Shown here: one piece after another, positions 5,863-45,159 of the stretch
Layout: the number at the start of each line of letters is the position of its first letter
Numbering within the stretch: the stretch's first letter is position 1
Virus record (IMG/VR): IMGVR_UViG_3300035696_000014
Coordinates: 1 to 64,000 of that record
Length of the DNA: 64,000 nucleotides
Reading direction: 5' to 3' (one strand)
Source of the DNA: a virus
Program-made: the position numbers and the translations under genes
The notes under the pieces: model-generated
What the model was told of the DNA's origin: nothing
What the model saw: the letters and a program-made list of their open reading frames with translations, nothing else
Database searches by the model: none

Positions 5863-6100
5863 TCCGCGAGAATGGCACATCATGCGGGACCTGGTCCCGG
5901 ATGTCCTTCTCGAACCTGACACACTCGGGGTCTTCCAGGTAGGCCGTCTGGTCCTCGTAGGCCTCTTCGCAACCGCACCGTACGCCGTCGATCTCTTGGG
6001 TGCCCCCGTTGCAGCAGTTGTTGCCGCAGTCGGCGCAGATGACCATGTTGCCCTCGCACAGGGCACAGTAGGACAGGGTGTGGCGTGAGTAGCGTGCCAT
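5828..6100 (-). CDS. Cys-rich small protein
   Basis: CALC...CADCGNNCC...CGC; translationally coupled to the upstream gene. Confidence 0.55.
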   Translation of the reverse strand: MARYSRHTLSYCALCEGNMVICADCGNNCCNGGTQEIDGVRCGCEEAYEDQTAYLEDPECVRFEKDIRDQVPHDVPFSRIRPPGGPSDQS

Positions 6101-6384
6101 CAGTCGAGCTCGTACTCGGCTTCGAGGGTCTCTTTCGACACCAGGAACGTCTCCCCCTCAGGGGTCCTGAGGATGACATCCCTTGGCCCGACGCTGTTGA
6201 TGGTGTAGCGGATCTGCGATCCCTTGTGCTTCACCTTGAGCTCGGGCGACAGCACGTCTGCCGGGTTGTTGCCGATCTTCGAGGTCATGACCATGTCGAT
6301 CTGCTCGGCGAGCTTGGCGACCTTGGCGTTCCACTCCTCACGCATCACGCGGAGGACGTCTGCTTCTGTCAGGGGCTTCACCAC
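6100..6384 (-). CDS. Probable virion protein
   Basis: GTG start right after ATAGTTA (6387-6393); LTEADVLRVMREEW. Confidence 0.6.
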   Translation of the reverse strand: MVKPLTEADVLRVMREEWNAKVAKLAEQIDMVMTSKIGNNPADVLSPELKVKHKGSQIRYTINSVGPRDVILRTPEGETFLVSKETLEAEYELD

Positions 6385-6389
6385 GGTAA

Positions 6390-7001
6390 CTATCGCGCTG
6401 CCAGGGCTTGGTCGATGGCTTCGTCGAACGACAGGACCTCGACCCCCACCGACTTCAGCAGGTCGACCCCCTCGGTGAGGCGGTACGGGATCTTCCAGAC
6501 AACCCGAGCGATCTCGGCGTTGATGATCAGCTTTGCACAGTCCTTGCACGGCATGTGGGTGACGTACATGTGCTTCTTCTTGGCGAAGTTGAAGTCACAC
6601 TTGACCAGAGCGTTGACCTCGGCATGGATGAAACCGCTCTTGCCGGGCTCGGTCGACTCGTGCTGGTGTGGTCCGCCCTTGTAGTTGCCGTTGTACCCGA
6701 CGCTGAGCATCTGGGTGTTGTCGGCGCTGACGATGATGGCACCCACCTGAAGGCGGGGATCGTACGACCGTTCCGCCATGATGAAGGCAACGCTCATCCA
6801 CGTCTCGGGCCAGGGCCGCCGCTGGGGCGCGCCGCACTGCGGGCACCACCCGTCCTTGAACTTGCAGAGCTCACCGTCAACGCACCAGTGGGCGCCCAAC
6901 GCACGCAGCATCGGGCTCCACTTCGGACGGGCTTCCATCTCCTGAGTGGGAGGCAAGGAAGCAGAAGGAAGCGCAAGCTCTGTCACATCGTGTCTGGTCA
7001 T
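6390..7001 (-). CDS. dCMP deaminase
   Basis: GYNG, HAEVNA and PCKDC zinc-deaminase motifs. Confidence 0.9.
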   Translation of the reverse strand: MTRHDVTELALPSASLPPTQEMEARPKWSPMLRALGAHWCVDGELCKFKDGWCPQCGAPQRRPWPETWMSVAFIMAERSYDPRLQVGAIIVSADNTQMLSVGYNGNYKGGPHQHESTEPGKSGFIHAEVNALVKCDFNFAKKKHMYVTHMPCKDCAKLIINAEIARVVWKIPYRLTEGVDLLKSVGVEVLSFDEAIDQALAAR

Positions 7002-8161
7002 GTTGTCACCAGGCTCTGGAACAATTCGCTCTCCAGACGTTGGAGTTCCATGCCCAGCGCCTTGCCCGAAAACCCCTGGGCCATCAGGGGCTCACCCCTG
7101 TAGGGCTCAGCGGACAGGTACGACAAGAAAGCCGCGAACACCACGCGGTCGGGCAGGCCACGTGCTCTGACGTACTCGATGACGTCGTCGGGTGACAGCC
7201 CGGTGCTCCTGAACGCCTTGCGGAGCTTCGGAGCCGACTCCTTCGTCAGGTCCCGGAGGCGGAGCAGGAACGTGACCTGTGCCACCTCTTCGGCCGAGTA
7301 CTTCAGGTGGTTCAGCCTCTTCCCCACCGTCTCCGGGTCCTCGCCGTCCAGCAGGAGGGCGAGCACGACGGGGACGTTGTTGGAATCGATCCCGCGCGTG
7401 GACACGAGCGAGTCGAGGCACGGCGACGCCTTGAGACCGGGCAGGACACGGTCCCACATGTTGAGCTCGTCCATGAGCCGCATCAGGCGTTTCGAGCTCC
7501 GGGCTCCCGAGATCGACCTAACCAGCTCGTCGCGGACGCGTTCGAACGACACGCCATCGAGGTTGTTGTCACGTATGATTGCTTGGTACGTCTCGGACTC
7601 GATCTTGAAGCCGAGCTTGACAGCGAAGCGGATAGCCCGCATCACCCTCAGCCTGTCTTCCGCGAAACGGTCCTCGGGGCGGCCCACCGTCCTGATGATA
7701 CCGTCGTCAATGTCGGCCAGGCCCCCGACGAGGTCGACGACCTCCTCCTTGGAGATGTCGTAGAAGAGGGCGTTGATCGTCAGGTCCCGGCGCTGGACGT
7801 CTTCCTTGATCGTGGCGAAGCGTACCGTCGGGTGACGGCCCATCGACATGTCTTCGCGAAACGTGGCGATCTCGTACTCCTCCGACGGCGACCCGTCAGG
7901 CGTGTACCGCCTCGTCCTGATGACACCGAAAGCCTTGCCGACCTCGTCCGTCATCCACAGGTTCGTCCCGTGGAGCATCGCCTCGACCTGGTCGGGCCGG
8001 GCGTTCGTGGCGAGGTCGAAGTCCTTGGGCGCCTTGCCCATCACCGCGTCGCGGACGGCCCCGCCCACCAGGTACAGCTCGTACCCGTTGGACGCGAATA
8101 GCATTGCCAGCGACAACACGTCGCTGTGCAACGCGATCTTGAGTAGCCTACGGACTTCCAT
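6998..8161 (-). CDS. cca: CCA-adding tRNA nucleotidyltransferase
   Basis: VGGAVRD, DFDLAT, RRDLTINA, EDRLRVMRAIRF, ERVRDE. Confidence 0.9.
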   Translation of the reverse strand: MEVRRLLKIALHSDVLSLAMLFASNGYELYLVGGAVRDAVMGKAPKDFDLATNARPDQVEAMLHGTNLWMTDEVGKAFGVIRTRRYTPDGSPSEEYEIATFREDMSMGRHPTVRFATIKEDVQRRDLTINALFYDISKEEVVDLVGGLADIDDGIIRTVGRPEDRFAEDRLRVMRAIRFAVKLGFKIESETYQAIIRDNNLDGVSFERVRDELVRSISGARSSKRLMRLMDELNMWDRVLPGLKASPCLDSLVSTRGIDSNNVPVVLALLLDGEDPETVGKRLNHLKYSAEEVAQVTFLLRLRDLTKESAPKLRKAFRSTGLSPDDVIEYVRARGLPDRVVFAAFLSYLSAEPYRGEPLMAQGFSGKALGMELQRLESELFQSLVTT

Positions 8162-8167
8162 TTCGCC

Positions 8168-8197
8168 ATCCTACCACGGACGGGAGCCGTTTTTCAC
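8168..8197 (-). promoter_or_regulatory. Sigma70-like promoter GTGAAA-N18-TAGGAT, ATG 6 nt downstream
   Basis: Same layout recurs at 10 or more sites. Confidence 0.65.
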
Positions 8198-8775
8198 TCT
8201 TTCGTGATGTTTGCTCGCTTGTCGACAGCAAGATGGTGGCGAAAGCACCGGGGCTCATAGAGCTCGCTGCCACCGACCTCGATCTCGTCACCCTCGGTCT
8301 GCTTCTTGTGGGTGTAGTAGGCGTCTCTCCCGCACTCAGTGCAGACGGCACTGCACTTCTCGACGTGGGTTGCCCACGCCATCAGCTTCTCGATCTCGTG
8401 GAACGGTTTGGCCAAGTAGTTGAGGTCCAACGTGGAGACGACGATGTCGATGCCAAGCTGGTACAGGTAGATCAGGACCTCGGCAACACCCGGGATCATG
8501 AAGGCCTCGTCGACAGCCACCACCTCGGGTGTCTGTTCAGCGTCGGCCAAGGCGCCAAGGATGTCGGCACCCTCTTTGACCAGGATCGAGGGGTACCGCC
8601 AGCCCGAGTGGCTGACGATCTCGCTGTGGCTGTACCGGGCATCGATCGCAGGCTTGAACGCCATGATCCGCTTGCCCTGGTACTTGGCACGCTCCAGCGA
8701 GAGCAACAGCTTTGTCGTCTTGCTGCTGAACATCGGTCCAACATAGACCGCTAGCGTCGGGTTCTGACCACTCAT
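8194..8775 (-). CDS. tdk: Thymidine kinase
   Basis: GPMFSSKTT, VDEAF, CTEC...YEPRC; start reassigned to MSGQ. Confidence 0.9.
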   Translation of the reverse strand: MSGQNPTLAVYVGPMFSSKTTKLLLSLERAKYQGKRIMAFKPAIDARYSHSEIVSHSGWRYPSILVKEGADILGALADAEQTPEVVAVDEAFMIPGVAEVLIYLYQLGIDIVVSTLDLNYLAKPFHEIEKLMAWATHVEKCSAVCTECGRDAYYTHKKQTEGDEIEVGGSELYEPRCFRHHLAVDKRANITKE

Positions 8776-9341
8776 TCGCGCTTCAACTCCAAGATGGTGT
8801 GGGGACCGCGGCATGCCGCGTTGTACTTCTCGGCTGCTTCGAGCGCCAGCTTGACCCGTTCCCGTGGGGGCATCCCGCTGTTCCGGGTCGCATGCAGGGC
8901 GCCGAAAGCGATCTGCCCGCCTGCTCCGATGGCGTAGAAGTTGTCCTGTGGACGGCCAACATCGAAGTCTTCCTCGATGGCGTAGAGGTGGCCCTTGTAG
9001 CCGACCATGCACGCCATCGGGTGGGTCTCTTCCTCGTCGTCCTTCTTCAGGGCACCCTTCTCCTTCAGGGTCGTCCTCAGAGCGTCAACGAAGTCGACGA
9101 CCATGTACGTCATGTCATCGTGCTTGGTGGGCTGGTCGGGTGGAACGAACGCGTGCCTCAACAGCTGCCCAGCCCGGAAGCTGCCGCAGAAACCCATGAT
9201 GACCTTGACGTGGCCCTCGTCGTTGATGAAGACCTTCTCGTCAGCCCGGCCTACTACGTGGGAGCCTACCTCATCGCTCGCAAGCGAATCGCCTCCCAAG
9301 TAGATCGTGTCACCCTCGACCAGGCCGACGATGCAGGTCAT
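8772..9341 (-). CDS. Ntn-hydrolase, HslV/proteasome-beta-like (copy 1)
   Basis: MTCIVG start exposing Thr1, GGDS, KVF, AIGAG. Confidence 0.75.
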   Translation of the reverse strand: MTCIVGLVEGDTIYLGGDSLASDEVGSHVVGRADEKVFINDEGHVKVIMGFCGSFRAGQLLRHAFVPPDQPTKHDDMTYMVVDFVDALRTTLKEKGALKKDDEEETHPMACMVGYKGHLYAIEEDFDVGRPQDNFYAIGAGGQIAFGALHATRNSGMPPRERVKLALEAAEKYNAACRGPHTILELKRE

Positions 9342-9344
9342 GCT

Positions 9345-9911
9345 TCATCCCCGGCTCTTGATGACCAGCGTGTCGAACGGGGGCGCGCAACCTGCGTTCT
9401 TGGTCGATGCTTCGAGTGCCATCAGCACTCGTTTCTTGGCACCCCAGACCTTGCGGGTCGCATCGAAGGAACCGATGGCCAGCTTGCTGCCGCTGCCGAC
9501 GGAGTTGAACTTCTCGTCGCCCTCCACCAGCTGGAAGTTGCCCTGGAGGTTGAAGAGCCGGCCCCTGTAGGCGACCAGCATCGAGCCCTCGAAGACGATC
9601 TCGCCGGTGCCACCGAATGGGCTGCTGTCCTTGCCTGCCGCGTCGAGCTTGACGAGCCCATCGCGGATCGCGGGGACCAGCTCGGTGACCAGGAACGTCT
9701 TGTCGTCACCGCCCGCCTGCTTGGGCAGCTCGATGCCGTGCTTCAGGGCGTCCATCACCTTGGGCAGGCCGCAGACGCCGAAGCCGATCTCACCCTTGGC
9801 GAAGATCTTGGGCTCCTTGAGCAGCGTCCTGTTCAGGCCGCCGTCCGTCGCCGCCCGGTCGCCGCCGAGCCACACCTTCTTGCCGTCCACCAGACCAACG
9901 ATGCATGTCAT
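9345..9911 (-). CDS. Ntn-hydrolase, HslV/proteasome-beta-like (copy 2)
   Basis: MTCIVG start at 9911, GGDR, PKIF, SVGSG. Confidence 0.75.
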   Translation of the reverse strand: MTCIVGLVDGKKVWLGGDRAATDGGLNRTLLKEPKIFAKGEIGFGVCGLPKVMDALKHGIELPKQAGGDDKTFLVTELVPAIRDGLVKLDAAGKDSSPFGGTGEIVFEGSMLVAYRGRLFNLQGNFQLVEGDEKFNSVGSGSKLAIGSFDATRKVWGAKKRVLMALEASTKNAGCAPPFDTLVIKSRG

Positions 9912-10123
9912 GACTTCTTGTCCTCCGTGATCACGTGTTTGCCGTTCTTCTCTGCTTGCTTGGTGTCTGCCTCGCCGGCCGCGTATGACGACCAGGCGAT
10001 CGACGCCATCGATGCGAATGCCTCGCCCGAGTAGCCCAGGCGCTTGGCCGCCTTGACGGCCTTGGCGATCGACCCCGCAAGGGTCTCCCGCCAGGTGATG
10101 AGATCGCTGTCCTGCATGATCAT
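9908..10123 (-). CDS. Hypothetical protein
   Basis: Fills the gap with coupled stop/start. Confidence 0.55.
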   Translation of the reverse strand: MIMQDSDLITWRETLAGSIAKAVKAAKRLGYSGEAFASMASIAWSSYAAGEADTKQAEKNGKHVITEDKKS

Positions 10124-10887
10124 GCCTCCAGGGTGTTGAAAGGTGAGCTCGGGTAGAGCTCCTTGTACTGCGACTTGGTGACGGCGATCTCACCCGTCTT
10201 GGTGAAGTGATCGACCAGGTAGAAGTGCCGTTCGTAGACGTGGAGGCTGCCGGCGTTCCAGTGGATGTCGCCCTTGGGTAGGTCGAGGTCCATCGCCAGG
10301 CGACCCAGTACTGTGTTCTGCCAGGCCCAGTCGTTCTTGTAGCCCAGCACCGCGTCGTTGGACCTCATCTGGACACAGGCGTGGACTGCCCCGTCACGGA
10401 CCAGGTACTGCACTGCATTGGTACACATGAAGTCGCTGCGGCCATCGATGTTGTACTCCTCCCACATCGATGGGCGAGTGTAGATGACGACTGCCCGGCG
10501 CGACTCCGGGTTTTTCCTGAGCTCGGCCAGCACCTTGTCGTACTGCCTGCCGTTCTCCGGGCTGTACGTGGTCCAGCCGTAGTTGCTGTTGATGGTGCCG
10601 TCCTTCGACGCGACCGCCGCCCACACCTTGGGAGCACCACCCGGGATGTCATTGACGTTCCGGCTCTGGCTGTCGTACCACATCTCCTCGCGGTGGATGT
10701 AGTCCCGGTCCACCTTGCCGAACAGCGCCTCGTCCTCAGCAATGAACGAGGCTCCGATGATCTCGATCGTTCGCTTGCCGACCAAGCCCGTCATCGACGC
10801 CTCGCGGTTGACGCTGGTGAACTTCTCCTGTGCCAGGAGCGAGGCAAACTGGTCCCGGATCGCCTGTGCTGAGTTGTAGAGCGTCAT
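10120..10887 (-). CDS. dCMP hydroxymethylase (T4 gp42-like)
   Basis: TIEIIGASF, INSNYGW, SRR...IYTRPSM, DFMCTN, MRSND, NDWAWQ (Asp at the dCMP-specificity position), GSLHVYERHFYLVDH; matches T4 gp42 as recalled. Confidence 0.9.
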   Translation of the reverse strand: MTLYNSAQAIRDQFASLLAQEKFTSVNREASMTGLVGKRTIEIIGASFIAEDEALFGKVDRDYIHREEMWYDSQSRNVNDIPGGAPKVWAAVASKDGTINSNYGWTTYSPENGRQYDKVLAELRKNPESRRAVVIYTRPSMWEEYNIDGRSDFMCTNAVQYLVRDGAVHACVQMRSNDAVLGYKNDWAWQNTVLGRLAMDLDLPKGDIHWNAGSLHVYERHFYLVDHFTKTGEIAVTKSQYKELYPSSPFNTLEA

Positions 10888-11837
10888 TTGTTGAGCCTCA
10901 TGTTCCCAATGCTTTCCCAGTTGCTCTCGTACCACTTGATGGTCCGGTCCAGTCCCTCCCAGAACCGGACCAGCGGCGTGTAGCCCAGCAGACGGTTCGC
11001 TTTGGAGATGTCGGCCTGCGTGTGCATGACATCGCCCGGCCTCCAGCCAGCCACAGTAACCTGTGCCTGGGGGTAGTGTTTCGCCAGCTCCGTCAGGATC
11101 TCACGGTTCGTCGTGCGATCCCCACACGCCACGTTGATGCACTCAGCGTTGAGCGGGTCAGCGACCAACGCTGCACGGACGCAGCAATCGGTGACGTTGT
11201 CAACGTAGCACATGTCCCGGCTCTGGGAACCGTCCCCGTCGCTACGGAGCGGCACGCCCTTCTTGATCGCCGTCAGCCATGCTGACACCGCCGTCGCGTA
11301 TGGCGAATCGCCGAGCTGGTTGGGACCGAAGACGTTGAAGAAGCGGAGACAGACGCTGTCGAGCCGATACAGATCCCGGTACAGCTTCAGGTAGTCCTCG
11401 ATGATCGACTTCTGGAGGGCGTAGGGCGACTTCGGGTTCTTGGGCTCCGTCTCTGGAGTGGGCAGAACATCGGCCCCACCGTAGACCGACGAGCTGGATG
11501 CGAAGACGAAACGCTTGACGTTTTCCCGACAGGCGTCCATCAACGCCAGCGTCCGAGAGACGTTGGTGTGGTTGGTCTCCAACGGGTGCTCGACCGAGTA
11601 CGAGACCCTGGGCACCGCTGCTAGGTGGAAGACGACGTCGTAGCGGCCCTGCTTGATCTCGTGGATGACCTCGGGATCAGCAAAGTCCTTGACGATGACG
11701 GGCTGGCCATGTGGGACGAACGCCAGGTTCCCGTTTGACAGATCGTCGACGGTGTCGACAGCCCACCCCTCTTGCAGGCACCGGGCCACCAGGTTGGACC
11801 CGATGAAGCCGGCGCCGCCAGTTACAAGGACATGCAT
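10884..11837 (-). CDS. NAD-dependent NDP-sugar 4-epimerase/dehydratase (extended SDR)
   Basis: GGAGFIGS, ASSSSVYG, YALQK (YxxxK), RFFNVFGP. Confidence 0.9.
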   Translation of the reverse strand: MHVLVTGGAGFIGSNLVARCLQEGWAVDTVDDLSNGNLAFVPHGQPVIVKDFADPEVIHEIKQGRYDVVFHLAAVPRVSYSVEHPLETNHTNVSRTLALMDACRENVKRFVFASSSSVYGGADVLPTPETEPKNPKSPYALQKSIIEDYLKLYRDLYRLDSVCLRFFNVFGPNQLGDSPYATAVSAWLTAIKKGVPLRSDGDGSQSRDMCYVDNVTDCCVRAALVADPLNAECINVACGDRTTNREILTELAKHYPQAQVTVAGWRPGDVMHTQADISKANRLLGYTPLVRFWEGLDRTIKWYESNWESIGNMRLNK

Positions 11838-11843
11838 GGGCGG

Positions 11844-11873
11844 ATCCTAACTCGCCCAGGCACAGAAGTTCAG
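11844..11873 (-). promoter_or_regulatory. Promoter CTGAAC-N18-TAGGAT for the epimerase-hydroxymethylase operon
   Basis: Consensus match; ATG 6 nt downstream. Confidence 0.65.
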
Positions 11874-11876
11874 CGC

Positions 11877-12407
11877 TTAGCTGTGGTAGAGCAGGTCCAT
11901 CCACTCGCCGGCGTCTGGGTCCCAATCGTACGCTTGCTCGGGATCCTGGAACTCAACGGGCTCGTTCTCGATGTGGAGGACCCAAGGCTCGCCGTCAACG
12001 TCTACCGTCGGATCATCAGAGTCCAGCGGCTCGAACAGGAAGGGCTGAAGGGCCGTGTAACCGTTCTGCATCGCTGCTGCGAACGCATCGGGAGCCCAAC
12101 GTTTGACGTCGTCCCAGGTGACCTCTTCCATGTGCTGGTGGGCGCTCTCGGGGAGGATCTTCTTCGCCGCTTCGTTGACGTAGAAGTCGACGACTTCCTT
12201 GTCGGGTTTCCTGCCGTCGGTCTCCTGGAGCGCAGATGACCACGACATGTACGTCAGGTCCCAGTGCTCGTCGCTGTTTGCGAACTTGCGACCCAGTTTG
12301 GCCTCGACCAGCCGACGGAACTTGGGATGGCTGTCGATCTGGGCTTCCTCAGTGAGGACGGACTCCACCTCTTCACGCACCAGGGCCCTGAGCTGCTTCT
12401 CGTTCAT
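11877..12407 (-). CDS. Probable virion protein
   Basis: MNEKQLRALVREEVESVLTEE; ATAGTTA at 12414-12420. Confidence 0.65.
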   Translation of the reverse strand: MNEKQLRALVREEVESVLTEEAQIDSHPKFRRLVEAKLGRKFANSDEHWDLTYMSWSSALQETDGRKPDKEVVDFYVNEAAKKILPESAHQHMEEVTWDDVKRWAPDAFAAAMQNGYTALQPFLFEPLDSDDPTVDVDGEPWVLHIENEPVEFQDPEQAYDWDPDAGEWMDLLYHS

Positions 12408-12419
12408 GACCTGTAACTA

Positions 12420-13751
12420 TCAGGCCAGGAGACCCATCCGTCGCATCACCGCGGGCGTGGTGGCCTCGTAGGAGCACCGGTTCCTGACGACCTGCAGGAG
12501 GGGTGCCCGGAGGTCAGACGGGTTGGGCGCGGACTTGACGTAATCGATCAACCACTCCGCTTTGTCGACCAGGTCGCTGAGGTCGGGCCGGGCCAGCATC
12601 CCGTCCATCCCGGCCTCTCGGGCCAGGCTCGAATACTCGAAGTTGTCGAGCCACAGTGGCATACACCCGAGCTCGACGAGTTCTCTGGCTGCCGTCCCGC
12701 CGTAGGGGTCAACGTTGTAGAGGCCCAGGGCGATGTGGGAATGGCGGCCGACGAACTTGTACTCGTTGCGGTCGAAGGTATCCTCCGTCAGCTTGATGTA
12801 GCCGTTGGCCCCGCACTTCTCCTCGAGCTCCTTGTTGGAGAACTTCTGGTTTGGGTTGCCGCACACCACGACGAAGTCCTGGCGCCGCTGGCGCAGCTTG
12901 GGCAACACCTCGAACATGAACTTCATGCCGTTGGTGTAGTCGCCGCTGCTGGGGCTGATGCGGTTCGGGAAGAACAGGACGACCTTGCCCTTTGTCTTCT
13001 CCTCCCACTCCTGGCGGGTGAAGCGCATCCGCTCCTCGTCGACTGGGTCAGTCGTCTCCATCTGCGAGTACCCGTCGTCCCAGGGCACCGACTTGGCCCG
13101 GACATCGTCCACCACGTCCTGGGTGAACCACTTGCCCATGCTGTCGAAGAATTGCAGCATCGAGCTCTCGCACTGCCAGAAGTTGTAGTCGGCCCTCAAC
13201 GCCGCCTCGCACTGGCCCAGCCACAGGCTGCACTCTGCCGGGAACTTGGGAGCTTCAGGCACGTCGACGAAGTGGGAGTGAACGTAGAACCTTGGCTGGT
13301 AACCGGCGATGACGTGAAACATCGCCTTGAAGTTCCGCAGGTGCATCGGGTCGTTGATGTAGACGGCGTCGTACTTGGGGGTGCGACCGATCTTCATCAT
13401 GCCGAGGTCCAGGCCACAAGCCAGGCCCGACCAATCGAAGTCGAAGCGGGTCACCAGGGCGTTGGGCAGGATGTTGTGGCCGAAGAAGTGGAGGCGTCGG
13501 TCGCCGTCCGGTCCGTGCTTCTCCCACAGGACCCGGCTGATGTCGACCGGGTGCTCAACACACTGATTCTCTTGGGGCTCGTCGTCACCCATCTGTGGGC
13601 ACATCACGGTGATGTCCAGTTCCGGGTTGCGGGCCAGCATCTCGCGGACCCTTCCCATCACCATCTGCCAACCGCTGTCACAGGCCAGGTCGAACTTGTT
13701 GTGCTTGTAGTTGATGTTGCTGAGCTGTGTCTGGACCAGGAGACGCTTCAT
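12420..13751 (-). CDS. Divergent GT-B glycosyltransferase, candidate DNA (hmC) glycosyltransferase
   Basis: FPNR and DPYGGTAARELVELGCMP resemble the GT4 E-x7-E/G-x-P motif; lies beside the gp42-like gene. Confidence 0.6.
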   Translation of the reverse strand: MKRLLVQTQLSNINYKHNKFDLACDSGWQMVMGRVREMLARNPELDITVMCPQMGDDEPQENQCVEHPVDISRVLWEKHGPDGDRRLHFFGHNILPNALVTRFDFDWSGLACGLDLGMMKIGRTPKYDAVYINDPMHLRNFKAMFHVIAGYQPRFYVHSHFVDVPEAPKFPAECSLWLGQCEAALRADYNFWQCESSMLQFFDSMGKWFTQDVVDDVRAKSVPWDDGYSQMETTDPVDEERMRFTRQEWEEKTKGKVVLFFPNRISPSSGDYTNGMKFMFEVLPKLRQRRQDFVVVCGNPNQKFSNKELEEKCGANGYIKLTEDTFDRNEYKFVGRHSHIALGLYNVDPYGGTAARELVELGCMPLWLDNFEYSSLAREAGMDGMLARPDLSDLVDKAEWLIDYVKSAPNPSDLRAPLLQVVRNRCSYEATTPAVMRRMGLLA

Positions 13752-13773
13752 GGTTTCACCCTACCCGGTCGGG

Positions 13774-14307
13774 TCACTTTAGGTTCTGCTTCAACCACTC
13801 AGTACACTCTCGAGCGTGAGTGACGCTCTCGACGATGTCATCCCAGGCACGGTGCGCCTCGGCCTTCTTGAACCGCGGCATCCCCATCGACTGGCAGAAC
13901 AGCTTCAGGGCCGACACGTCGTAGTGACGGTGCGACAGCTTCTTGTTCGTCAGCGGGAGGTGGACCTTGATGTACGAATGGTCGAAGTGGATGCTCGAGC
14001 CGGCCAGCGTGGCACGCTCGTCTTTGTCCTCGACCCACTCCACCAGGGAGGACAGCTCCTCGTCGACCCGGGCTCGGGACTTGGCGGCGATGCACATGCA
14101 CTCTGACAGCAACCCGTTCTTGGTGTGCATGTTGATGATGAACGGGTCGAGCTTCTCGACCGGCGTCTGCAGCTCCAGGACCGCGTCGTAGATCCGGGTG
14201 ATGTTGAAGGGATCACGCAGGTCTGCGGTCGCCACCGACACCTCGAGCACCTGGGTGTTCGCCGGGTCCAGCCCTGTCGTCTCAAGGTCCAGCCAGTACA
14301 GCTTCAC
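13774..14307 (-). CDS. orn: Oligoribonuclease (DEDDh)
   Basis: WLDLETTGL, MHTKNGL, GSSIHFD, HRAWDDI. Confidence 0.85.
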   Translation of the reverse strand: MKLYWLDLETTGLDPANTQVLEVSVATADLRDPFNITRIYDAVLELQTPVEKLDPFIINMHTKNGLLSECMCIAAKSRARVDEELSSLVEWVEDKDERATLAGSSIHFDHSYIKVHLPLTNKKLSHRHYDVSALKLFCQSMGMPRFKKAEAHRAWDDIVESVTHARECTEWLKQNLK

Positions 14308-14576
14308 GAGGGCTTCTCCTCGTCCGTTCCCAGGACCTCTTCATCGAAGTCGTTCATCCAGCCCGGCTTGTCGGCAACGCCGCACAACGCGGCGATGTCT
14401 GTCAGGAACTGTTCACCCTCGAACGAGCAAGCCACCGTCCCCGAGCCATCTTCCTTCTTGGCGATGATCGCCAGCAACACCTTGCCCTCGGGCTCGGCGA
14501 CCTTGGCCACCTCCATGGCCAGGCGCAGGTGTGGCAACGCGTCCAGCAGTCGCTGCTTCGATTCTGCCTCGCTCAT
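14304..14576 (-). CDS. Hypothetical protein
   Basis: Start MSEAESK with GAAGGAG SD. Confidence 0.55.
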   Translation of the reverse strand: MSEAESKQRLLDALPHLRLAMEVAKVAEPEGKVLLAIIAKKEDGSGTVACSFEGEQFLTDIAALCGVADKPGWMNDFDEEVLGTDEEKPS

Positions 14577-14920
14577 GTCATCTCCTTCAGTGAAATGGCT
14601 AGCAACATCTTCAACTTGTCGAGCTGGGTGTACACACCCATGACCGAGTTGGTCAGTGAACGAGCCTCGACCGGGTTCACCGTGGCAGCGAGCTGGTACA
14701 ACCGCTCGAGCGCGGCGACTGGACGTGACTGGGTCAGCAACAGGAGCAATCTCCGCGCCTCCAGCGGATCGAACTCGACGGTGACGGTCTTGGCTCGCCT
14801 CTTGGCATTGGTCTTGGCGTCTTCCCAGACGCCCCAACACGTCGGGCAGCCATCAGGGTACTTCTGCGTCTTGACCGGGTGCCGGGTCGCCGTGTAGCGC
14901 AGGTGTTCCTTACACTTCAT
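14573..14920 (-). CDS. Hypothetical protein with C-x2-H...CxxC motif
   Basis: Start MKCKEH, coupled to the upstream stop. Confidence 0.55.
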   Translation of the reverse strand: MKCKEHLRYTATRHPVKTQKYPDGCPTCWGVWEDAKTNAKRRAKTVTVEFDPLEARRLLLLLTQSRPVAALERLYQLAATVNPVEARSLTNSVMGVYTQLDKLKMLLAISLKEMT

Positions 14921-15351
14921 GCGGGCCACCGCTTCCTGATCTCTTCCAACGCCAGGTCGCTCAGCTGCCAGCGGTCCTTCTTCCACAGGCTGCCTCCGGC
15001 GATCATGCCGTCGCGGACGTACCACATCGCGTAGGTGCACTCATACATCGTCACCGCAATGTAACCGTCGGTGTAGATCAGAGCGTGGGTCTGATTTCCG
15101 TACGAATCGTCCCACTCGGGCAAGTCGGGCTTTTGACCCAAGTAGGTGACCTCGACCGGGAACTTGTAGTCCGGGTGGTCGCCGTGCGCGTGCTCCAGCA
15201 TCAGGTTGTCGTGTCTGATGCACTTGACGGGCAGGTGGTTGGGCCGCAGCTCCTTGCCACCGTTCATGATGGCGTAGTTGACGTGACACTCCCACTCACA
15301 GAAGTTGTGGCCCTCGGGCGTCGGCTTCTTGCAGGAGAGGCACCTGCTCAC
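14917..15351 (-). CDS. Hypothetical protein with N-terminal Zn finger
   Basis: CLSC...FCEWEC; GTG start. Confidence 0.55.
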   Translation of the reverse strand: MSRCLSCKKPTPEGHNFCEWECHVNYAIMNGGKELRPNHLPVKCIRHDNLMLEHAHGDHPDYKFPVEVTYLGQKPDLPEWDDSYGNQTHALIYTDGYIAVTMYECTYAMWYVRDGMIAGGSLWKKDRWQLSDLALEEIRKRWPA

Positions 15352-15524
15352 GACTTGACACCGTTGGTCCGACAGGTGGTGCACCTGTTCGCTTGGGTGG
15401 TGCCCTGTTGGCTGCAGTTGTTGTCGAACACGTGACCGCAGTAGGCCTTGTCACCGTTGTTGGGAGGCGTCGTGCCCGGCCACCAGTGCCACTTCCCACT
15501 GACCGTGTCGTAGTACCACATCAT
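15348..15524 (-). CDS. Small Cys/His protein (not in ORF track)
   Basis: MMWYYDTVSGKWHWW...AYCGH...RCTTC; overlaps both neighbours at stop/start. Confidence 0.5.
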   Translation of the reverse strand: MMWYYDTVSGKWHWWPGTTPPNNGDKAYCGHVFDNNCSQQGTTQANRCTTCRTNGVKS

Positions 15525-16075
15525 CATACCACCCTGTAGATGAAGTAGTGCACCTCATCGAGCTCTCGTTGGAGGTTCTCATCGTCGACGTTGAGCTTCA
15601 ACAGCTTGCACTTGGTCCAGCTAGCGAAGTCGAGGTAGGCGTCATGGAGTTGCTGGAGGGTCTCGCCCTTGACGGTCGGGTCCAGGTCATCCACCACGTT
15701 GGCGTAGCTGGTCCTGGCACACAGGACGATCCTCGCATCGAGCTTGGACCACTCCTCATCCAGGTGCTTCAGCATCTTGGTGTCGGTCTCGCGGCCGAAG
15801 ACCTTGCTGTAGGCGTATTCGCACGGGAACCCGCGGTCAAAGATGACGCTGGCACCCGTCTGCCTCAACAGGTCCATGACCCGTGGGTCGGCGTAACGGA
15901 GCTGCTGCAGGAACAGCTCACGCTTCGAGACCCGGCTCGACAGGAAGGCATCGTGCTCGCTCGACGCCTTGAAGTAGGGGATGTCAGTGACCCTCGAGAG
16001 GGCCTGGCTAATCTCGGTCTTGCCACACATGTCAGGACCGACGAAGAACACGATCCGTTGCCGTCCCACGTACAT
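15524..16075 (-). CDS. dNMP kinase (thymidylate-kinase fold), candidate hmdCMP kinase
   Basis: GPDMCGKT P-loop and IFDRG...YAY. Confidence 0.7.
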   Translation of the reverse strand: MYVGRQRIVFFVGPDMCGKTEISQALSRVTDIPYFKASSEHDAFLSSRVSKRELFLQQLRYADPRVMDLLRQTGASVIFDRGFPCEYAYSKVFGRETDTKMLKHLDEEWSKLDARIVLCARTSYANVVDDLDPTVKGETLQQLHDAYLDFASWTKCKLLKLNVDDENLQRELDEVHYFIYRVV

Positions 16076-16108
16076 GGGGACTATCCTACACCCTGTGCCC
16101 GGAAATCG

Positions 16109-16115
16109 ATACTTA
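16109..16115 (+). promoter_or_regulatory. Putative late promoter ATACTTA
   Basis: 7 nt before ATG 16123; divergent from the TAGGAT box at 16083-16088. Confidence 0.65.
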
Positions 16116-16122
16116 CTGGTTC

Positions 16123-19100
16123 ATGAGGGTCAGGCTTAGCGTCCTGAAGGAATACTTCTCCTTCCTGCTGGTTGAGGGTAGGGTCGACGACGCCCGTGAG
16201 AAGTTCCCGGACATCGAGGAAGACGACTGGCAACAGCTCGTCGCCAACCAGCCCGCAGGCTCCAACAACAAGTACCTGATGTGGGGCGCCGGCCAGGTCG
16301 ACGACGGGTTCTCTGTCGAGGTCGTGGTCCAGGTCATCCGCCTGTTCGACGGGCACGTCCACCGCCTGAAGCAGAAGGACATCAACCAGTACAAGGACGT
16401 CGGTGAGATCGAGAAGGCCGTCGACGAGCTGGGCGAGAAGAAGACCAAGAGCCAGGTCGCCAAGCAGGCCCGGGCTGACACCGACACCATCTACAACGAC
16501 GACCACTGGCTCGTTGTCCGGCCCCACACCACCGAGTCGTCACAGAAGTACGGAGTCGGCACCCGCTGGTGCATCGCCGCGACCGCGTCCCGCAACTACT
16601 ACAAGTCGTACTCGGAGAGCAACAACAAGTTCTACTTCGTCATCGACAAGAAGCAGCTGGACTCCAAGACGCCGTCGTCGAAGTACGCCCTCGCCATCAT
16701 CTCGGCGGGCCAGTCGGCCACGGGCGATCGCATCCAGGTCTACGATGCCAGCGACAAGCTGGTCAGCATGAAGACCGTCGCCGACCACGTCGGTGACAAG
16801 TGGCCCGAGATCTGGAAGAAGATCGAGGCCCACGTCAAGGCCAACCCGATTACCCGCGAGGTCGAGGAAGCCCAGAAGGCTGTCGACGAGCACGTCCAGG
16901 CCCTGATGAAGGGCGACAAGGTCAGCGAGACGGGCCTCCAACAGATCGCTTCGAAGGGCAAGCTGACGACCGATGTAGTCAAGGCCCTGATCGCCAAGTT
17001 CGACGACTACCCGGCTCCCCGTGACTGGTACCAAGACAAGCGCTCCAACATCATGAGCGCGTTGTCGGACCGCTCCGACCAGCTGCAACCTGAGGCCGCG
17101 TTGGCCGTGATGAAGTGGATCGCCAGCGCCCGCCCCGAGGGTGGCAGCTATTGGAGCGGCAACTACTACCTCGAACGGATGATGACCAACGCCAACCTGC
17201 CGCCCGAGGGCTTCGCAGAGCTGGCAGCCACCGGAGACGAGACGATCCTGGCCCGTCTCTTCACCAACCCGTCGTGCCCCGAGGAGGTCAAGAAGAAGAT
17301 CGCCGAAGCCGTCGCCAAGTTCAAGAGCGCCGAGGCCGCCCGTCAGGTGTACTGGGAGCTCATCAAGTCAGGCAACATCACCGACGAGCAGTTCAAGCAG
17401 GCGATGCAGAAGGACGCCGGCGAGCGCAGCGGCTACGGCACCGTCACCGACATGATCCTCAACCACCCGGAGGAAGTGCGGCTGAAGCCCGAGATGATCC
17501 GCCAGCTCCAGGTCAAGGACGCCCACCAGCTCCAGCAGTTCATGAAGCTGCCCAACGTCCCGAGCGACGCGATGGTCGCTGCCCTGACAACGCTGATGCG
17601 CAATAAGGGCCTGAAGAAGTACGACCTCTACCAGACGCTGCGGACTGTCAACCTGACGACCGAAGACATCGAGTCGCTGTGGTCGAACAACAAGGACGCT
17701 GAGGCCCGGACCGCGATGCTGCAGAACCCGGCCATCGGTGCTGGGAACGCTGCGAAGTTCGCCAAGAGCAAGAACAGCGCGTACCGCTTCGCCATCGCCC
17801 ACAACCCGGTGACCCCGCCCGCTGCCCTCGAGGGGCTATCGACCGACGAGTCGGTGTCGACCCGTGCTGCGGTCGCTGCCAACACCAACACCCCGGCTGA
17901 GACCCTCACTCGCCTGGCTGGTGACGAAGCCACCGCCGTCCGCGCCAGCGTTGCCAGCAACGACAAGGCACCCCGTGACATCCTGGATGCTCTGAAGCGT
18001 GACAGCGATGAGTTCATCCGCAAGGCCGCAAGGAAGACCCTGAAAGCTCTGTCGGCTGTTGTCGCCACCGAGGCCCTGCTCCGGTCGATGAACAACCTGA
18101 TGCTGATCGAGGTCCTGAACGAGGCGATGGACGATGACTCCACACCCGACATCATGAACCCGAGCTGGCGTGACCTGCCTGCACGGTCGGTCGACGTCCA
18201 CGAGTTCATCGCCGTCTACCTGCTGCAGAACAACGGCCACGCGACCCGTGAAGAGATCGGCGATGCCTTCCAGGACTGGATGGGTTCTGGTGGCTCCAAG
18301 GAGCTGTGGCAGACCAACCGCTACACCCAGGAGATCTACCGTGGGTCGACCTCGGGTGGCAAAGGCTGGTACTGGTCGCCTCCCGGCATCAACAAGGGTG
18401 CCCTGTTCAGGCTGACCCCGTCGGGCGCCAGCGCTGCGTTGGAGGTCCTGCAGCGGCACAAGGGCTACGGCGAGCGCCCCGAAGCGACGGTCACCTCGGC
18501 CACGGCAAGGCCCGGCAAGACCTACTACACCCCCGAGCTCCGTGATGCTCTCGACATCACCGGCTACGAGAAGGGTGAGATCGACATGGAGGAGGTTGAG
18601 GTCGACCGCAACGGCAACCCGTTGAAGGTCAACGGCAAGTACCAGAAGCTCAACCCGGAACGCTCGCGGCGCATGAAGCGCCTGCACCCGGGCACCAAGA
18701 TGTACAAGATCACCATGCCCAGCGGCGAGGTCAAGGTGCTCAAGGAGCTGCCCAAGGTCCAGCTGCCTGGCAACTCGGCCGTCGTCTTCGTCAAGAACCT
18801 CTACGGCCTGGCCAAGGGCGCCAGCAGCTACAACCGCGAGTCAAACCGTGCCGTCGTCAAGCACGGTGACAGGTTCCTCGTCGTCAACTACCCGCTGTGG
18901 GCCGCAGAGGGCGGGCACACTCCTGCTTCCAAGGAGAAGAACGTGCCACCGCCTGTCAAGAAGTCGTCACCCGCAAGTGCAGAACCCACCCGTGCCGCCG
19001 GAGCCGCTCGTCCGACGGGTCCGAAGGTCTCCTACAAGATCTACGGTCGCAAGGCCGGCAAACCCGCCCACACCAGGCTGAAGGGCCAGGCCTACGGCGC

Positions 19101-19224
19101 TCCGGCCGACACGCAGTTCACGCCAGGCGAGCTCGCGGTGCTCCAAGCGACAGACGACAACAAGCTGAAGGTCAAGAAGATCCAGGGTGACCACGAACAG
19201 ACGTGGGATCCCGTCGAGGGCTGA
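16123..19224 (+). CDS. Large multidomain probable virion protein with LRV/HEAT-like repeats
   Basis: 1033 aa; repeats such as LSTDESVSTRAAVAANTNTP. Confidence 0.75.
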   Translation: MRVRLSVLKEYFSFLLVEGRVDDAREKFPDIEEDDWQQLVANQPAGSNNKYLMWGAGQVDDGFSVEVVVQVIRLFDGHVHRLKQKDINQYKDVGEIEKAVDELGEKKTKSQVAKQARADTDTIYNDDHWLVVRPHTTESSQKYGVGTRWCIAATASRNYYKSYSESNNKFYFVIDKKQLDSKTPSSKYALAIISAGQSATGDRIQVYDASDKLVSMKTVADHVGDKWPEIWKKIEAHVKANPITREVEEAQKAVDEHVQALMKGDKVSETGLQQIASKGKLTTDVVKALIAKFDDYPAPRDWYQDKRSNIMSALSDRSDQLQPEAALAVMKWIASARPEGGSYWSGNYYLERMMTNANLPPEGFAELAATGDETILARLFTNPSCPEEVKKKIAEAVAKFKSAEAARQVYWELIKSGNITDEQFKQAMQKDAGERSGYGTVTDMILNHPEEVRLKPEMIRQLQVKDAHQLQQFMKLPNVPSDAMVAALTTLMRNKGLKKYDLYQTLRTVNLTTEDIESLWSNNKDAEARTAMLQNPAIGAGNAAKFAKSKNSAYRFAIAHNPVTPPAALEGLSTDESVSTRAAVAANTNTPAETLTRLAGDEATAVRASVASNDKAPRDILDALKRDSDEFIRKAARKTLKALSAVVATEALLRSMNNLMLIEVLNEAMDDDSTPDIMNPSWRDLPARSVDVHEFIAVYLLQNNGHATREEIGDAFQDWMGSGGSKELWQTNRYTQEIYRGSTSGGKGWYWSPPGINKGALFRLTPSGASAALEVLQRHKGYGERPEATVTSATARPGKTYYTPELRDALDITGYEKGEIDMEEVEVDRNGNPLKVNGKYQKLNPERSRRMKRLHPGTKMYKITMPSGEVKVLKELPKVQLPGNSAVVFVKNLYGLAKGASSYNRESNRAVVKHGDRFLVVNYPLWAAEGGHTPASKEKNVPPPVKKSSPASAEPTRAAGAARPTGPKVSYKIYGRKAGKPAHTRLKGQAYGAPADTQFTPGELAVLQATDDNKLKVKKIQGDHEQTWDPVEG

Positions 19225-19227
19225 CCC

Positions 19228-20232
19228 GTGCTGCTGGCGGTGTCACAGCTGCGCCACCTCATCTGGTGCGGTCTGACTGAGGGTGGCCTGAAGCTGCCCC
19301 CACATGAACGTGTCGACCTGACTCCCAAGCTGGTCAAACAGGCTGTTGAAACCTACGAGGGCTTTCTCAAGGGTTGGAACACCTGGCTCCAGAGACGTGG
19401 CCATGAGCCCGTCAAACCGATGGGCCCATCTGGCTCATCGACCCATGCACACCGTGACATCGTCGACAAGCCTGAGATGATCTACGGCGACGTTGACTAC
19501 CTGGTGTCGATCCCGGTCAGCTACGACACCGAGGAGCTGACCGATCAACGCAAGGCCGATGCTGCTTCCGAGCGGGACTATGAAGCCCTGTTGGTGCAGT
19601 ACCTGAAGACGACGCCCGCTCACGTTGACGTGGCCCTAACCCTGAAGGGTGCCCCCACTCAGGTCGTCATCAGGCTGCCCGGTGGCGAGGCCGTCCAGGT
19701 CGATACCGTCATGACACATCCAGAGCACGCTGACTGGATGAAGGGACGCTACACCCCTGAACGTGGCATCAAGGGCTACGTCAGCGGCAACCTCTACAAG
19801 GCCTTGGGCGATGCCCTGACCCTCAACATCGGCACCGAGGGCGTGTTGGCCCGGATGAAGGGTGACCAACGCGTCGCCAGCAACGTCAGGTCCGGCGTCA
19901 GCTTCAAGCGGGTCTCCAACAACTTCAGGACCTTCCTGCTGGACATCGCCCAATACCTGGGTGCCACCGACATCGACCCGATGCTGGAGGAACATCCCGG
20001 CCTGGACCCTGAGGCCATCAACATCGATGACCTGGCGATGGGTATCGTTGGCCTGGCCCGGACCCTGGACGAGCCCGACCTGTTGGACCGAGTGCTGGCG
20101 GGCTTCCAAGCGGGCCTCGAGAGCAACGTCGACAAGAAGGCCTCACGCGACCTGTCGCCCGACAAGCTGGCGAAGCTGCGCAAGCTCAACAAGGACCAGT
20201 ACGAACGGGTCCGGAAGATCTTCAGGTCCTGA
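19228..20232 (+). CDS. Pol-beta-superfamily nucleotidyltransferase with virion-type leader
   Basis: GS...GDVDYLV...VQVD; N-terminal SQLRHLI...LTEG. Confidence 0.6.
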   Translation: MLLAVSQLRHLIWCGLTEGGLKLPPHERVDLTPKLVKQAVETYEGFLKGWNTWLQRRGHEPVKPMGPSGSSTHAHRDIVDKPEMIYGDVDYLVSIPVSYDTEELTDQRKADAASERDYEALLVQYLKTTPAHVDVALTLKGAPTQVVIRLPGGEAVQVDTVMTHPEHADWMKGRYTPERGIKGYVSGNLYKALGDALTLNIGTEGVLARMKGDQRVASNVRSGVSFKRVSNNFRTFLLDIAQYLGATDIDPMLEEHPGLDPEAINIDDLAMGIVGLARTLDEPDLLDRVLAGFQAGLESNVDKKASRDLSPDKLAKLRKLNKDQYERVRKIFRS

Positions 20233-20570: not shown

Positions 20571-20926
20571 GGCGTCCCCTTCAGTTGTTTGTCGAGGTCG
20601 ACCTGCTTGACGTCGGCACCGTAGCCGTCAACGTGGCACTTCACCCCGTGGTCGATCCACCACTGTGCGGTGACCCGGTTCTTGAAGTGCTCGAGGCATT
20701 CCCAATTGATCGACCTGACGTCAGTGATCGGGATGATGAAGCTCTTGTACCTCGAGTCGGGCCATTCAGTCGGCCCGTCTGGGCAGTAGATCTCGACAGC
20801 GAGCTGGGGCATGTCAGCCGGTTTCCCATCGACCACCACCCAACTGCGGGGGCTCGCGTACAGTCCCCACACCGTTGCCGTCCGGGTCTGCCCCTTGTAG
20901 CTCACGAATGCCTTGGGCCAGCTCAT
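20567..20926 (-). CDS. Hypothetical protein
   Basis: Start MSWPK coupled to the dnaE stop. Confidence 0.55.
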   Translation of the reverse strand: MSWPKAFVSYKGQTRTATVWGLYASPRSWVVVDGKPADMPQLAVEIYCPDGPTEWPDSRYKSFIIPITDVRSINWECLEHFKNRVTAQWWIDHGVKCHVDGYGADVKQVDLDKQLKGTP

Positions 20927-40816: not shown

Positions 40817-40856
40817 GCCCCAGACCTTATCTCAGGCCGGGACGGGTTTGCACTAT

Positions 40857-41348: not shown

Positions 41349-41396
41349 GGGCAGCTCCTCCCAGATAAGCTATGTATGCTCTCGCCAGCTGCCCAT

Positions 41397-44986: not shown

Positions 44987-45159
44987 TAGATGCACCTCAA
45001 CACGATCTCGGTAATGGTCAGCGGGTGGTCGACATCAACTGGCTCCCCTGCTTTGACCCGTTCGACCCAGTCCCGTAGCCGTTGAGCAGTCTCACTCGAC
45101 AGCTTGCTCTCGGCGAGGATGTCCTCAGCTTGCTTGATGAAGAGGGCCGTGTTGTCCAT
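44986..45159 (-). CDS. Small hypothetical protein
   Basis: MDNTALF start after GTGAAC-N18-TAGGAT. Confidence 0.5.
   Translation of the reverse strand: MDNTALFIKQAEDILAESKLSSETAQRLRDWVERVKAGEPVDVDHPLTITEIVLRCI

Follow-up and report, generated by a model that had tools for sequence, protein, structure and literature searches.

A candidate pathway for a non-glucose sugar on hydroxymethylcytosine in a lineage of jumbo phages

Sugar-coated cytosines are a main means by which phages escape restriction enzymes and CRISPR nucleases, and each new sugar selects new modification-dependent defences. Here we describe a candidate pathway of this kind in a stretch of 64,000 nucleotides (the window), corresponding to positions 1 to 64,000 of the virus record IMGVR_UViG_3300035696_000014, in which a cassette of minus-strand genes (10120-16075) encodes a T4 gp42-type dCMP hydroxymethylase, i.e., a homologue of thymidylate synthase (TS), together with a nucleoside diphosphate (NDP)-sugar 4-epimerase, a glycosyltransferase (GT) of the GT-B fold and a P-loop kinase. 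An earlier note on this DNA had proposed that the phage makes its own sugar donor and transfers the sugar to 5-hydroxymethylcytosine (hmC) as a new hypermodification. Judged from gene content and fold models, the cytosines of the phage DNA probably do carry a non-glucose sugar.

Among the closest described systems, the T-even phages with their glucosyl-hmC share with the window a gp42-type hydroxymethylase, a gp56 homologue, a dCMP deaminase and a dUTPase, as well as a transferase gene near the hydroxymethylase gene (T4 b-gt adjoins gene 42 and S16 likewise has a DNA glucosyltransferase there). In contrast, the window GT is GT4-like and has no sequence match in isolated phages, the kinase resembles thymidylate kinases (TMK) and deoxynucleoside kinases (dNK), and the phage, GC-rich, DnaE-replicated and of ~350 kb, has its own 4-epimerase and UDP-glucuronate decarboxylase (UXS). 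The pathways to glycosylated 5-hydroxycytosine (5hoC) described for RB69, DLP3 and Rhizobium phage RL38J1 have in common with this locus a cluster of TMK-like kinase, GT-B and TS homologue and an NDP-sugar made by the phage; they differ in their sugar enzymes, which are an arabinose-5-phosphate isomerase, a kinase/uridylyltransferase or a galactofuranose (Galf) mutase and not SDR enzymes as here, and in their TS homologue, the one in the window having an Asp at the position of E. coli ThyA residue 169 (ThyA-169) and being predicted to give hmC with its methylene bridge (PMC13326640).

Regarding non-glucose sugars, transferases from metavirome TET clusters put N-acetylglucosamine (GlcNAc) on hmC, and in some of these clusters genes for a P-loop kinase and an NAD-dependent epimerase lie beside that of the GT (PMC8256090). 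They resemble the present locus both in the non-glucose sugar on hmC (predicted in our case) and in the epimerase and P-loop kinase near the GT; their hmC, however, arises by methylation and TET oxidation on DNA at specific sites, whereas here it would be made at the nucleotide level and placed genome-wide (PMC8256090). No TET or C5-methyltransferase gene was seen in the scans of the cassette. The novelty claimed for the modification thus has to be narrowed: a non-glucose sugar (GlcNAc) on hmC is already published (PMC8256090), and it is the combination of genes for which no precedent was found. Indeed, the literature consulted, which left most subscription papers and supplements uncovered, yielded no description of a gp42-type hydroxymethylase accompanied by both 4-epimerase and UXS, nor of pentosyl- or galactosyl-hmC. 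The genes of the cassette, and those elsewhere in the window that would serve the pathway, are the following.

10120-10887, minus strand: T4 gp42-type dCMP hydroxymethylase, 255 amino acids (aa) (Pfam Thymidylat_synt PF00303, 8.5e-18; PDB 1b49, 2.1e-77)
10884-11837, minus strand: SDR-family NDP-sugar 4-epimerase, coupled to the hydroxymethylase (Pfam Epimerase, 3.3e-51)
11877-12407, minus strand: open reading frame (ORF) of 176 aa between GT and epimerase (homologue in one of 30 related loci, L002, 44%)
12420-13751, minus strand: GT4-like GT-B glycosyltransferase, 443 aa, candidate hmC-DNA GT (AlphaFold2 and structure comparison)
13774-14307, minus strand: RNase T/DnaQ-like exonuclease (Pfam and PHROG matches)
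15524-16075, minus strand: P-loop kinase resembling TMK and dNK, candidate kinase for hydroxymethyl-dCMP (hm-dCMP) (AAA_28, 1.7e-6; phrog_761 'thymidylate kinase', 6.9e-7)
26015-26989, minus strand: UXS homologue (human UXS1 4gll/2b69, 1.4e-84)
42951-43343, minus strand: gp56-like all-alpha NTP pyrophosphatase, candidate dCTPase (Pfam dUTPase_2 PF08761, 1.6e-5, 25.7 bits for a cut-off of 22.9)

All the elements that the earlier note had listed (kinase, GT-B, epimerase, gp42-type homologue, UXS, gp56-like pyrophosphatase and nucleotide genes) are present in the sequence. In the pathway that we propose, the gp56-like pyrophosphatase would lower dCTP, the gp42-type enzyme would convert dCMP into hm-dCMP, and phosphorylation of the latter would fall to the TMK/dNK-type kinase of the cassette or to a different kinase. 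The phage DnaE polymerase would then incorporate hm-dCTP, so that cytosine would be replaced before glycosylation takes place on DNA, where the 443-aa GT, by its fold a retaining UDP-sugar enzyme, would add a sugar to the hydroxymethyl group. The donor would derive from a host UDP-sugar through the coupled 4-epimerase; it would therefore be a 4-epimer, namely UDP-galactose (UDP-Gal), UDP-N-acetylgalactosamine (UDP-GalNAc) or, if the UXS feeds the epimerase, UDP-L-arabinose (UDP-L-Ara). We infer every enzymatic activity of this cassette, as well as DNA as the acceptor of the GT and the kind of sugar, from gene identities, active-site residues, folds and linkage, all of which are observed. That the GT glycosylates hmC-DNA with a sugar tailored by the epimerase is a proposal towards which we lean, by a narrow balance; the fuller version, in which a virus-only GT4-like family, distributed across the lineage of ~350-kb phages, decorates pre-replicative hmC with a 4-epimerised sugar tailored by the phage (GalNAc/Gal or, via the UXS, L-arabinose/xylose), is held tentatively, at somewhat short of even chances.

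The hydroxymethylase, described in the earlier note as close to T4 gp42, deserves this description. It is ~54% identical to gp42 of T4-like phages (T4 gp42 has 246 aa), and its PDB match to T4 hydroxymethylase at 2.1e-77 compares with 3.5e-12 for 9iqc (238 aa, deposited as a thymidylate synthase). According to a recent study, dCMP hydroxymethylases are marked, besides the catalytic Cys, by an Asp at ThyA N177, linked to dCMP specificity, and by an acidic side chain at ThyA L143, linked to the access of water; the modified base of RB69, formerly described as 'arabosyl-hmC', has since 2026 been understood as arabinosyl-5-hydroxycytosine, and RB69 'gp42' is a flavin-dependent synthase of 5-hydroxy-dCMP (5hodCMP), for which an Asn at the ThyA D169 position is diagnostic (PMC13326640). 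We aligned the window TS homologue and its relatives with T4 gp42, RB69 gp48, E. coli ThyA and the gp42 proteins of Cronus and S16, the active-site set being the 12 ThyA positions within 6 A of C5. The window enzyme has the T4 gp42 residue at 12 of 12 (W80, Y94, S142, D143, C146, T147, M165, S167, N168, D169, G173 and D177), with the catalytic Cys at ThyA C146 and Asp at both ThyA N177 and ThyA L143, all as in T4 gp42. The same alignment reproduces the published rule, RB69 gp48 having N169, A80 and V173, and T4, Cronus and S16 having D169. Moreover, D143, C146, D169 and D177 are kept in all 26 distinct related TS homologues. Since the window enzyme combines Asp at ThyA-169 with the residues of T4 gp42, the predicted base is hmC and not 5hoC; the TS homologue is of the hydroxymethylase type, with hm-dCMP as its predicted product.

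Within the cassette, genes are transcribed from the minus strand in the order kinase, two small ORFs (zero Pfam or PHROG matches), exonuclease, GT, 176-aa ORF, epimerase and TS homologue, and are followed downstream on the same strand by an HslV-like peptidase pair, a thymidine kinase, a CCA/poly(A) polymerase-type nucleotidyltransferase and a dCMP deaminase. The dCMP deaminase, the thymidine kinase, the DnaQ-like exonuclease and DnaE all lie around or within the cassette. The translational coupling of hydroxymethylase and epimerase put forward in the earlier note is borne out by the sequence: the stop codon of the epimerase (TGA, 10886-10884) overlaps an in-frame ATG of the TS homologue (10887-10885) as ATGA, and the TS-homologue gene is therefore 10120-10887 (255 aa), shorter than the ORF 10120-10935. 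No promoter-like site was detected in 6000-16600, and terminator-like sites in this interval number 10 for 6.9 expected, those on the coding strand being two mutually overlapping ones near 7140, which is compatible with one long transcription unit.

The conservation of this arrangement was followed by a scan of IMG/VR, in which 30 loci with 26 distinct GT sequences (42-67% identity) were retrieved and genes were counted by tblastn with the window proteins. The epimerase adjoins the GT in 28 of the 30 loci (missing in L025 and L029), the TS homologue lies downstream of the GT in 28 (L004 and L012 end too early), the kinase lies upstream of it in 28 (L006 starts at the GT and none was found in L017), and the exonuclease is present in 11. 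Co-occurrence in related phages, which the earlier note had suggested as a check, is hence borne out for kinase, GT, epimerase and TS homologue, found together and in order more often than chance would allow. The TS homologues themselves, 27-86% identical to that of the window, fall into three clades: a gp42-like one (51-86% identical), one of ~280 aa with 58% identity to a protein that is annotated as hypothetical in the Ralstonia jumbo phage RsoM2USA, and one of ~330-360 aa whose nearest relative is Bacillus phage G gp319. A TS homologue outside the gp42 clade (27-33% identical to the window's) is found in 12 of 28 loci (L011, L016, L017, L019, L020, L022-L024, L027 and L029-L031), this step of the pathway having repeatedly been taken over by analogues. 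On the maximum-likelihood tree of the GT, whose bootstrap support is not fully settled, the TS type changes five times; for instance, L005, whose TS homologue is of the gp42 type, groups as sister to L011, which has the long type (support 99/96). It follows that GT, epimerase and kinase kept a dCMP-hydroxymethylase-type neighbour through gene replacement. This persistence is the strongest argument for a functional link, although, within one lineage of conserved gene order, it is not independent of ancestry. As all three clades have the Asp, the lineage also offers the Asp/Asn-169 rule a test outside T4-like phages.

Regarding the GT, the earlier note's 'divergent GT-B protein', it shows a full-length GT-B/GT4-like fold in a confident model (pLDDT 91.5, pTM 0.89), computed with AlphaFold2 on an alignment of 30 of the 372 metagenome homologues. 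Structure comparison with VIA-align places it nearest to BshA (6d9t; Z 28.8, rmsd 3.3, 354 of 376 aligned), followed by SPS (6kih), PimA (2gej) and MshA (3c4q), each with Z 27.3, and Foldseek matches the model to 1uqt at 4.3e-11; on this modelling, the 443-aa protein can confidently be assigned to the GT-B enzymes of the GT4 kind. With BshA, MshA and PimA it shares the full-length GT-B fold (Z 27-29), but is only 8-12% identical to them, has no Pfam GT1/GT4 match, is virus-only and stands in a nucleotide-metabolism setting. Indeed, the sequence has zero matches in Pfam (E<=0.01), NCBIfam and PDB sequences, its profile finds none in the PDB at E<=10, the Pfam GT1/GT4 model PF00534 finds nothing in the phage's own 127-kb record, and tblastn against 50,697 phage records gives none at 1e-3. 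The homologues are in metagenomes (372 at E<=0.001, their contigs reaching 369 kb in length), the Atlas clusters that hold the GT are virus-only, and a pattern scan of prokaryote genomes (185,579 species) returned 11 matches and no confirmed GT relative, distant ones being able to escape patterns. By these sequence searches the family is virus-only and without a name.

Among the fold neighbours of the GT are 3mbo, 6kih, 2gej, 3c4q, 7qsg, 5ze7, 7fg9 and 8ixp, and the same eight PDB entries are given for phage DNA arabinosyl- and glycosyltransferases in Table 1 of PMC13326640; at the level of the model, this overlap with known phage DNA GTs is suggestive, though generic for GT4. The best match among BFVD viral models is Arthrobacter phage Kitkat gp88 (2.9e-16; 26% identity over 220 aa), and others are a cyanophage 'DNA alpha-GT' (3.4e-8), SP-15 transferases and RB69ORF047c (1.6e-6), which makes up one half of arabinosyltransferase 1. 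T4 AGT and BGT are absent among the matches listed (50 per search, Foldseek and VIA-align), distant kinship being possible. The N-terminal (acceptor) half is strongly conserved among the sequences 55-80% identical, with many invariant residues, and the C-terminal half has invariant R264, K303, R356, E357 and E372 in the sequence alignment, among which there may be nucleotide-sugar binding residues such as a Glu of the EX7E type and basic residues for the phosphates.

The 'second dNMP kinase' of the earlier note holds as a TMK/dNK-like P-loop kinase, on the basis of AAA_28, phrog_761 and fold; T4 gp1 entries are absent among the 50 matches listed for the fold. Its AlphaFold2 model (pLDDT 87.0) is nearest in VIA-align to 8puu (Z 15.7), YorR (2axp, Z 15.5) and TMKs (Z 14-15), a profile of 23 orthologues matches deoxyguanosine kinase 2jaq (4.4e-5) and YorR (0.014), and BLASTP gives E=2e-5 against RB69 gp45, which supplies the kinase in that phage's kinase/GT/TS cluster. 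In PMC13326640, YorR is the top match of DLP3 gp78. By sequence and model, the window protein is of the same broad kind as the 'nucleotide kinase' of 5hoC clusters; here it would act as an hm-dCMP kinase. The gp56-like pyrophosphatase is likewise where it had been placed: besides PF08761, it matches phrog_12184 (4.9e-15), and BLASTP aligns its last 61 residues with T4 gp56 (E=8e-9) as far as the C-terminus that both share. Orthologues occur in 20 of 25 records, and most align from residue ~44 of the long ORF, which backs the coordinates 42951-43343. Its sequence makes it a candidate for lowering dCTP.

The identity of the sugar depends on the epimerase and the UXS. In the PDB, the nearest sequences to the epimerase are 6wjb (1.5e-53), 6dnt (1.3e-52), WbgU (3.2e-51) and WbpP (2.2e-40), ahead of E. 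coli GalE (5e-24), and we take 6wjb/6wj9 (PelX), 6dnt, WbgU and WbpP to be UDP-GlcNAc/GalNAc 4-epimerases. In 25 of 25 family members, the enzyme has the Ser/Tyr/Lys triad and a Thr at the position of E. coli GalE Y299, a 'gatekeeper' position where a small residue admits N-acetylated substrates. NCBIfam models stay below their cut-offs (TIGR01179, 148.5 for 262.3 bits; the TviC model, 154.1 for 760). Among the structural neighbours of the GT, BshA and MshA at the top of the ranking and PglA lower down use UDP-N-acetylhexosamine (UDP-HexNAc) donors. The UXS, also claimed in the earlier note, is present at its expected place with the human UXS1 match and, at the triad positions, Thr/Tyr/Lys; no NCBIfam model is above cut-off. 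Its orthologues (at least 50% identity) are found in 21 of 25 records, its own included, and in all three records that are at least 90% complete. In the compact relatives L005 and L018, the one-strand gene order is UXS-DnaE-kinase-GT-epimerase-TS, and the UXS therefore belongs to the replication block. No second GT was found beside the UXS in the window: the genes next to it have zero Pfam or PHROG matches, and the Atlas offers only a poor model for the 274-aa ORF at 27368-28192, with no GT among its neighbours. Given that the nearest solved epimerases are of GlcNAc/GalNAc type, a galacto-sugar is favoured at least as much as the route from UXS to arabinose. The latter route, i.e., from UXS through UDP-xylose (UDP-Xyl) to UDP-L-Ara, is possible and not favoured over UDP-Gal/GalNAc. 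If glycosylation takes place, we would give a galacto-hexose or HexNAc a probability of about one half and a pentose about one third, other sugars taking the remainder.

Several observations weigh against a dedicated pathway for sugar on DNA. All 30 loci come from a single phage lineage in which gene order is conserved, and their synteny is thus not independent of ancestry. Three small fragments lack the UXS, as does G017, a record that is 78% complete, and UXS and epimerase come apart in three relatives, of which L025/G020 and L029/G023 have only the UXS and G017 only the epimerase. As the epimerase is missing by the GT in L025 and L029 and the UXS in G017, the sugar enzymes are not an obligatory set. 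Of the reading given in the earlier note, the hmC type of the hydroxymethylase, the GT-B fold and the conserved linkage are supported; DNA as the acceptor, the sugar named and a joint pathway of UXS and epimerase are proposals. In the 127-kb record (G000), 6-bp palindromes are depleted (median observed/expected ratio 0.84 for 1.00, p=1e-7), with ratios of 0.17 for AAGCTT, 0.48 for AACGTT and 0.58 for AGATCT, and, among 4-mers, 0.33 for CTAG. Such avoidance is unexpected for fully restriction-protected DNA, but T4, as a control (first 50 kb, same method), shows mild avoidance as well (0.91, p=0.013), so that the test does not discriminate. Finally, the lineage also makes glycans that need not sit on DNA, as shown by a glycan island of ~30 kb in complete relatives (G001:C1:313000-340000, within which L032 is 322000-336000, with equivalents in G009, G010 and G015), which is not in the phage's own 127-kb fragment. 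Per genome, this island has 5-6 GT1 and 2-4 GT2 matches, and also holds a PseB/CapD-like dehydratase, a DegT aminotransferase, a GNAT acetyltransferase, a cytidylyltransferase-NUDIX fusion and two UDP-glucose/GDP-mannose dehydrogenase-family genes, Ugd-family dehydrogenases being found in 4 of 5 records searched. The products of the island may be destined for the virion or the host surface.

These glycans are the main support for an explanation in which the DNA holds hmC, bare or otherwise modified, while GT, epimerase and UXS serve an acceptor in virion proteins, the host envelope or small molecules, the sugar genes merely riding in the early replication block: with its Ugd-like enzymes, the island gives UDP-glucuronate and UDP-Xyl another use. 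The closest solved folds of the GT (BshA, MshA, PimA and SPS), moreover, are GT4 enzymes acting on small molecules or lipids, and the top viral neighbour, Kitkat gp88, comes from a phage in which zero TS homologues were found at 24,000-58,560 (34.5 kb scanned), so that the wider GT fold group is not confined to hmC phages. In G001, however, the GT is more than 100 kb away from the island. A dCMP-hydroxymethylase-type gene has stayed beside the GT through two or more gene replacements, translation of the hydroxymethylase is coupled to that of the epimerase, and the conserved N-terminal half of the GT fits an invariant acceptor; we therefore judge a non-DNA acceptor rather unlikely, though it deserves serious attention. 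A quite different use of the kinase would be to act on hmC in DNA and provide it with a leaving group, so that a substituent other than a sugar could be attached; the GT would then add a second decoration or be unrelated. 5-Hydroxymethyl-dU DNA kinases do occur in thymidine-hypermodifying phages. P-loop kinases like those of phiW-14, SP10, ViI and M6 are found in cytosine-modification clusters (PMC8256090), and the kinase of the RB69/DLP3 cluster has no assigned role beyond 'nucleotide kinase' in Table 1 (PMC13326640). Yet the window kinase folds like mononucleotide and nucleoside kinases, an hm-dCMP kinase is required anyway with no second candidate identified, and Pfam and PHROG scans of the cassette genes gave zero aminotransferase, pyridoxal phosphate or radical-SAM tailoring genes, which makes this use of the kinase improbable. 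The arrangement of kinase, GT-B and TS homologue is also that of RB69 gp45-48 and of Table 1 in PMC13326640, and with the weak similarity of the kinase to RB69 gp45 it could suggest a glycosyl-5-hydroxycytosine system of the RB69/DLP3/RL38J1 kind, in which 5hoC, arising from the hydroxylation of dCMP by the TS homologue, would bear the sugar. We regard such a system as very improbable, the match to 1b49 being far ahead of that to 9iqc; for the TS homologue itself, a 5hodCMP synthase of the RB69 gp48/DLP3 gp80 type was rejected, as the diagnostic Asn is absent and ThyA-169 is Asp in the window enzyme and in all 26 distinct relatives.

Should the glycosylation of hmC with an epimerase-tailored sugar prove true, hmC DNA of the pentosyl or galacto type would be known for the first time, and O-glycosyltransferases acting on hmC in DNA would have a third independent origin; a DNA GT using UDP-GalNAc or a UDP-pentose would extend the set of hmC-labelling enzymes. 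With few genes to clone and 372 metagenome homologues, the new GT family is readily accessible.

The record from which the window is taken (its first 64 kb) is 127,191 bp long, with a CheckV completeness of 34%, and is a fragment of a phage genome of ~350 kb. The only data sets found to hold near-identical DNA are four contig sets from peat metagenomes, two of which contain at least half of the sampled words, with no RNA data set among those listed, and megablast of 10120-16075 against phage records gave zero matches. The earlier description of the genome as GC-rich and DnaE-replicated is accurate, GC ranging from 0.58 to 0.64 in the window and the DnaE-type polymerase lying at 20923-24714 (best identity 26-31% against 50,697 phage records). 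The dCMP deaminase, dUTPase, ThyX and TMK that had been reported for the window were all located by Pfam or PHROG matches, and a ribonucleotide reductase is encoded as well. Further features are as follows.

4816-5562, minus strand: Fe/Mn superoxide dismutase C-terminal domain (Sod_Fe_C, 9e-22)
6390-7001, minus strand: dCMP deaminase, co-directional with the cassette block, like cd in T4 (Pfam dCMP_cyt_deam_1, 1.1e-19)
6998-8161, minus strand: CCA/poly(A) polymerase-type nucleotidyltransferase, on the same strand as the cassette and downstream of it
8772-9341 and 9345-10193, minus strand: HslV/proteasome-like peptidase pair (phrog_1040, 5.5e-16; weak Pfam Proteasome)
16123-20232, plus strand: pair of genes between kinase and DnaE, for a 1033-aa protein and a 334-aa ORF
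35184-36131, minus strand: DNA methyltransferase (N6_N4_Mtase, 1.1e-31)
39312-42353, minus strand: polynucleotide kinase-phosphatase (PNKP) and RlaP-type nucleotidyltransferase (PNKP, HAD_PNKP, 4.5e-43)
43719-44381, minus strand: DNA methyltransferase (MT-A70, 1.1e-28)
44333-44995: TMK (Pfam scan)
45194-46147: ThyX (Pfam scan)
53340-53771: trimeric dUTPase (PHROG scan)

The presence of two DNA methyltransferase genes means that methylation is possible beside any cytosine modification, and the phage DNA, going by these genes, may be methylated in addition to it. The 176-aa ORF (11877-12407), with zero Pfam, PHROG or NCBIfam matches, is probably not a core part of the cassette. Its N-terminus is an amphipathic motif, QLRALVREEV, and it is a matter of speculation that this putative capsid-targeting tag marks an injected anti-defence protein inhibiting modification-dependent nucleases; T4 IPI* is an injected inhibitor of such nucleases. 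The plus-strand insert at 16123-20232 parts the kinase from DnaE in the window, whereas DnaE adjoins the kinase in the compact relatives L005 and L018; its 1033-aa protein has LRV repeats and a weak tape-measure match. The HslV-like pair lies between the thymidine kinase and hydroxymethylase genes and is kept in most related loci. Finally, the set at 39312-42353 looks RNA-repair-like, a fatty-acid-hydroxylase-family gene sitting between the PNKP and the RlaP-type gene.

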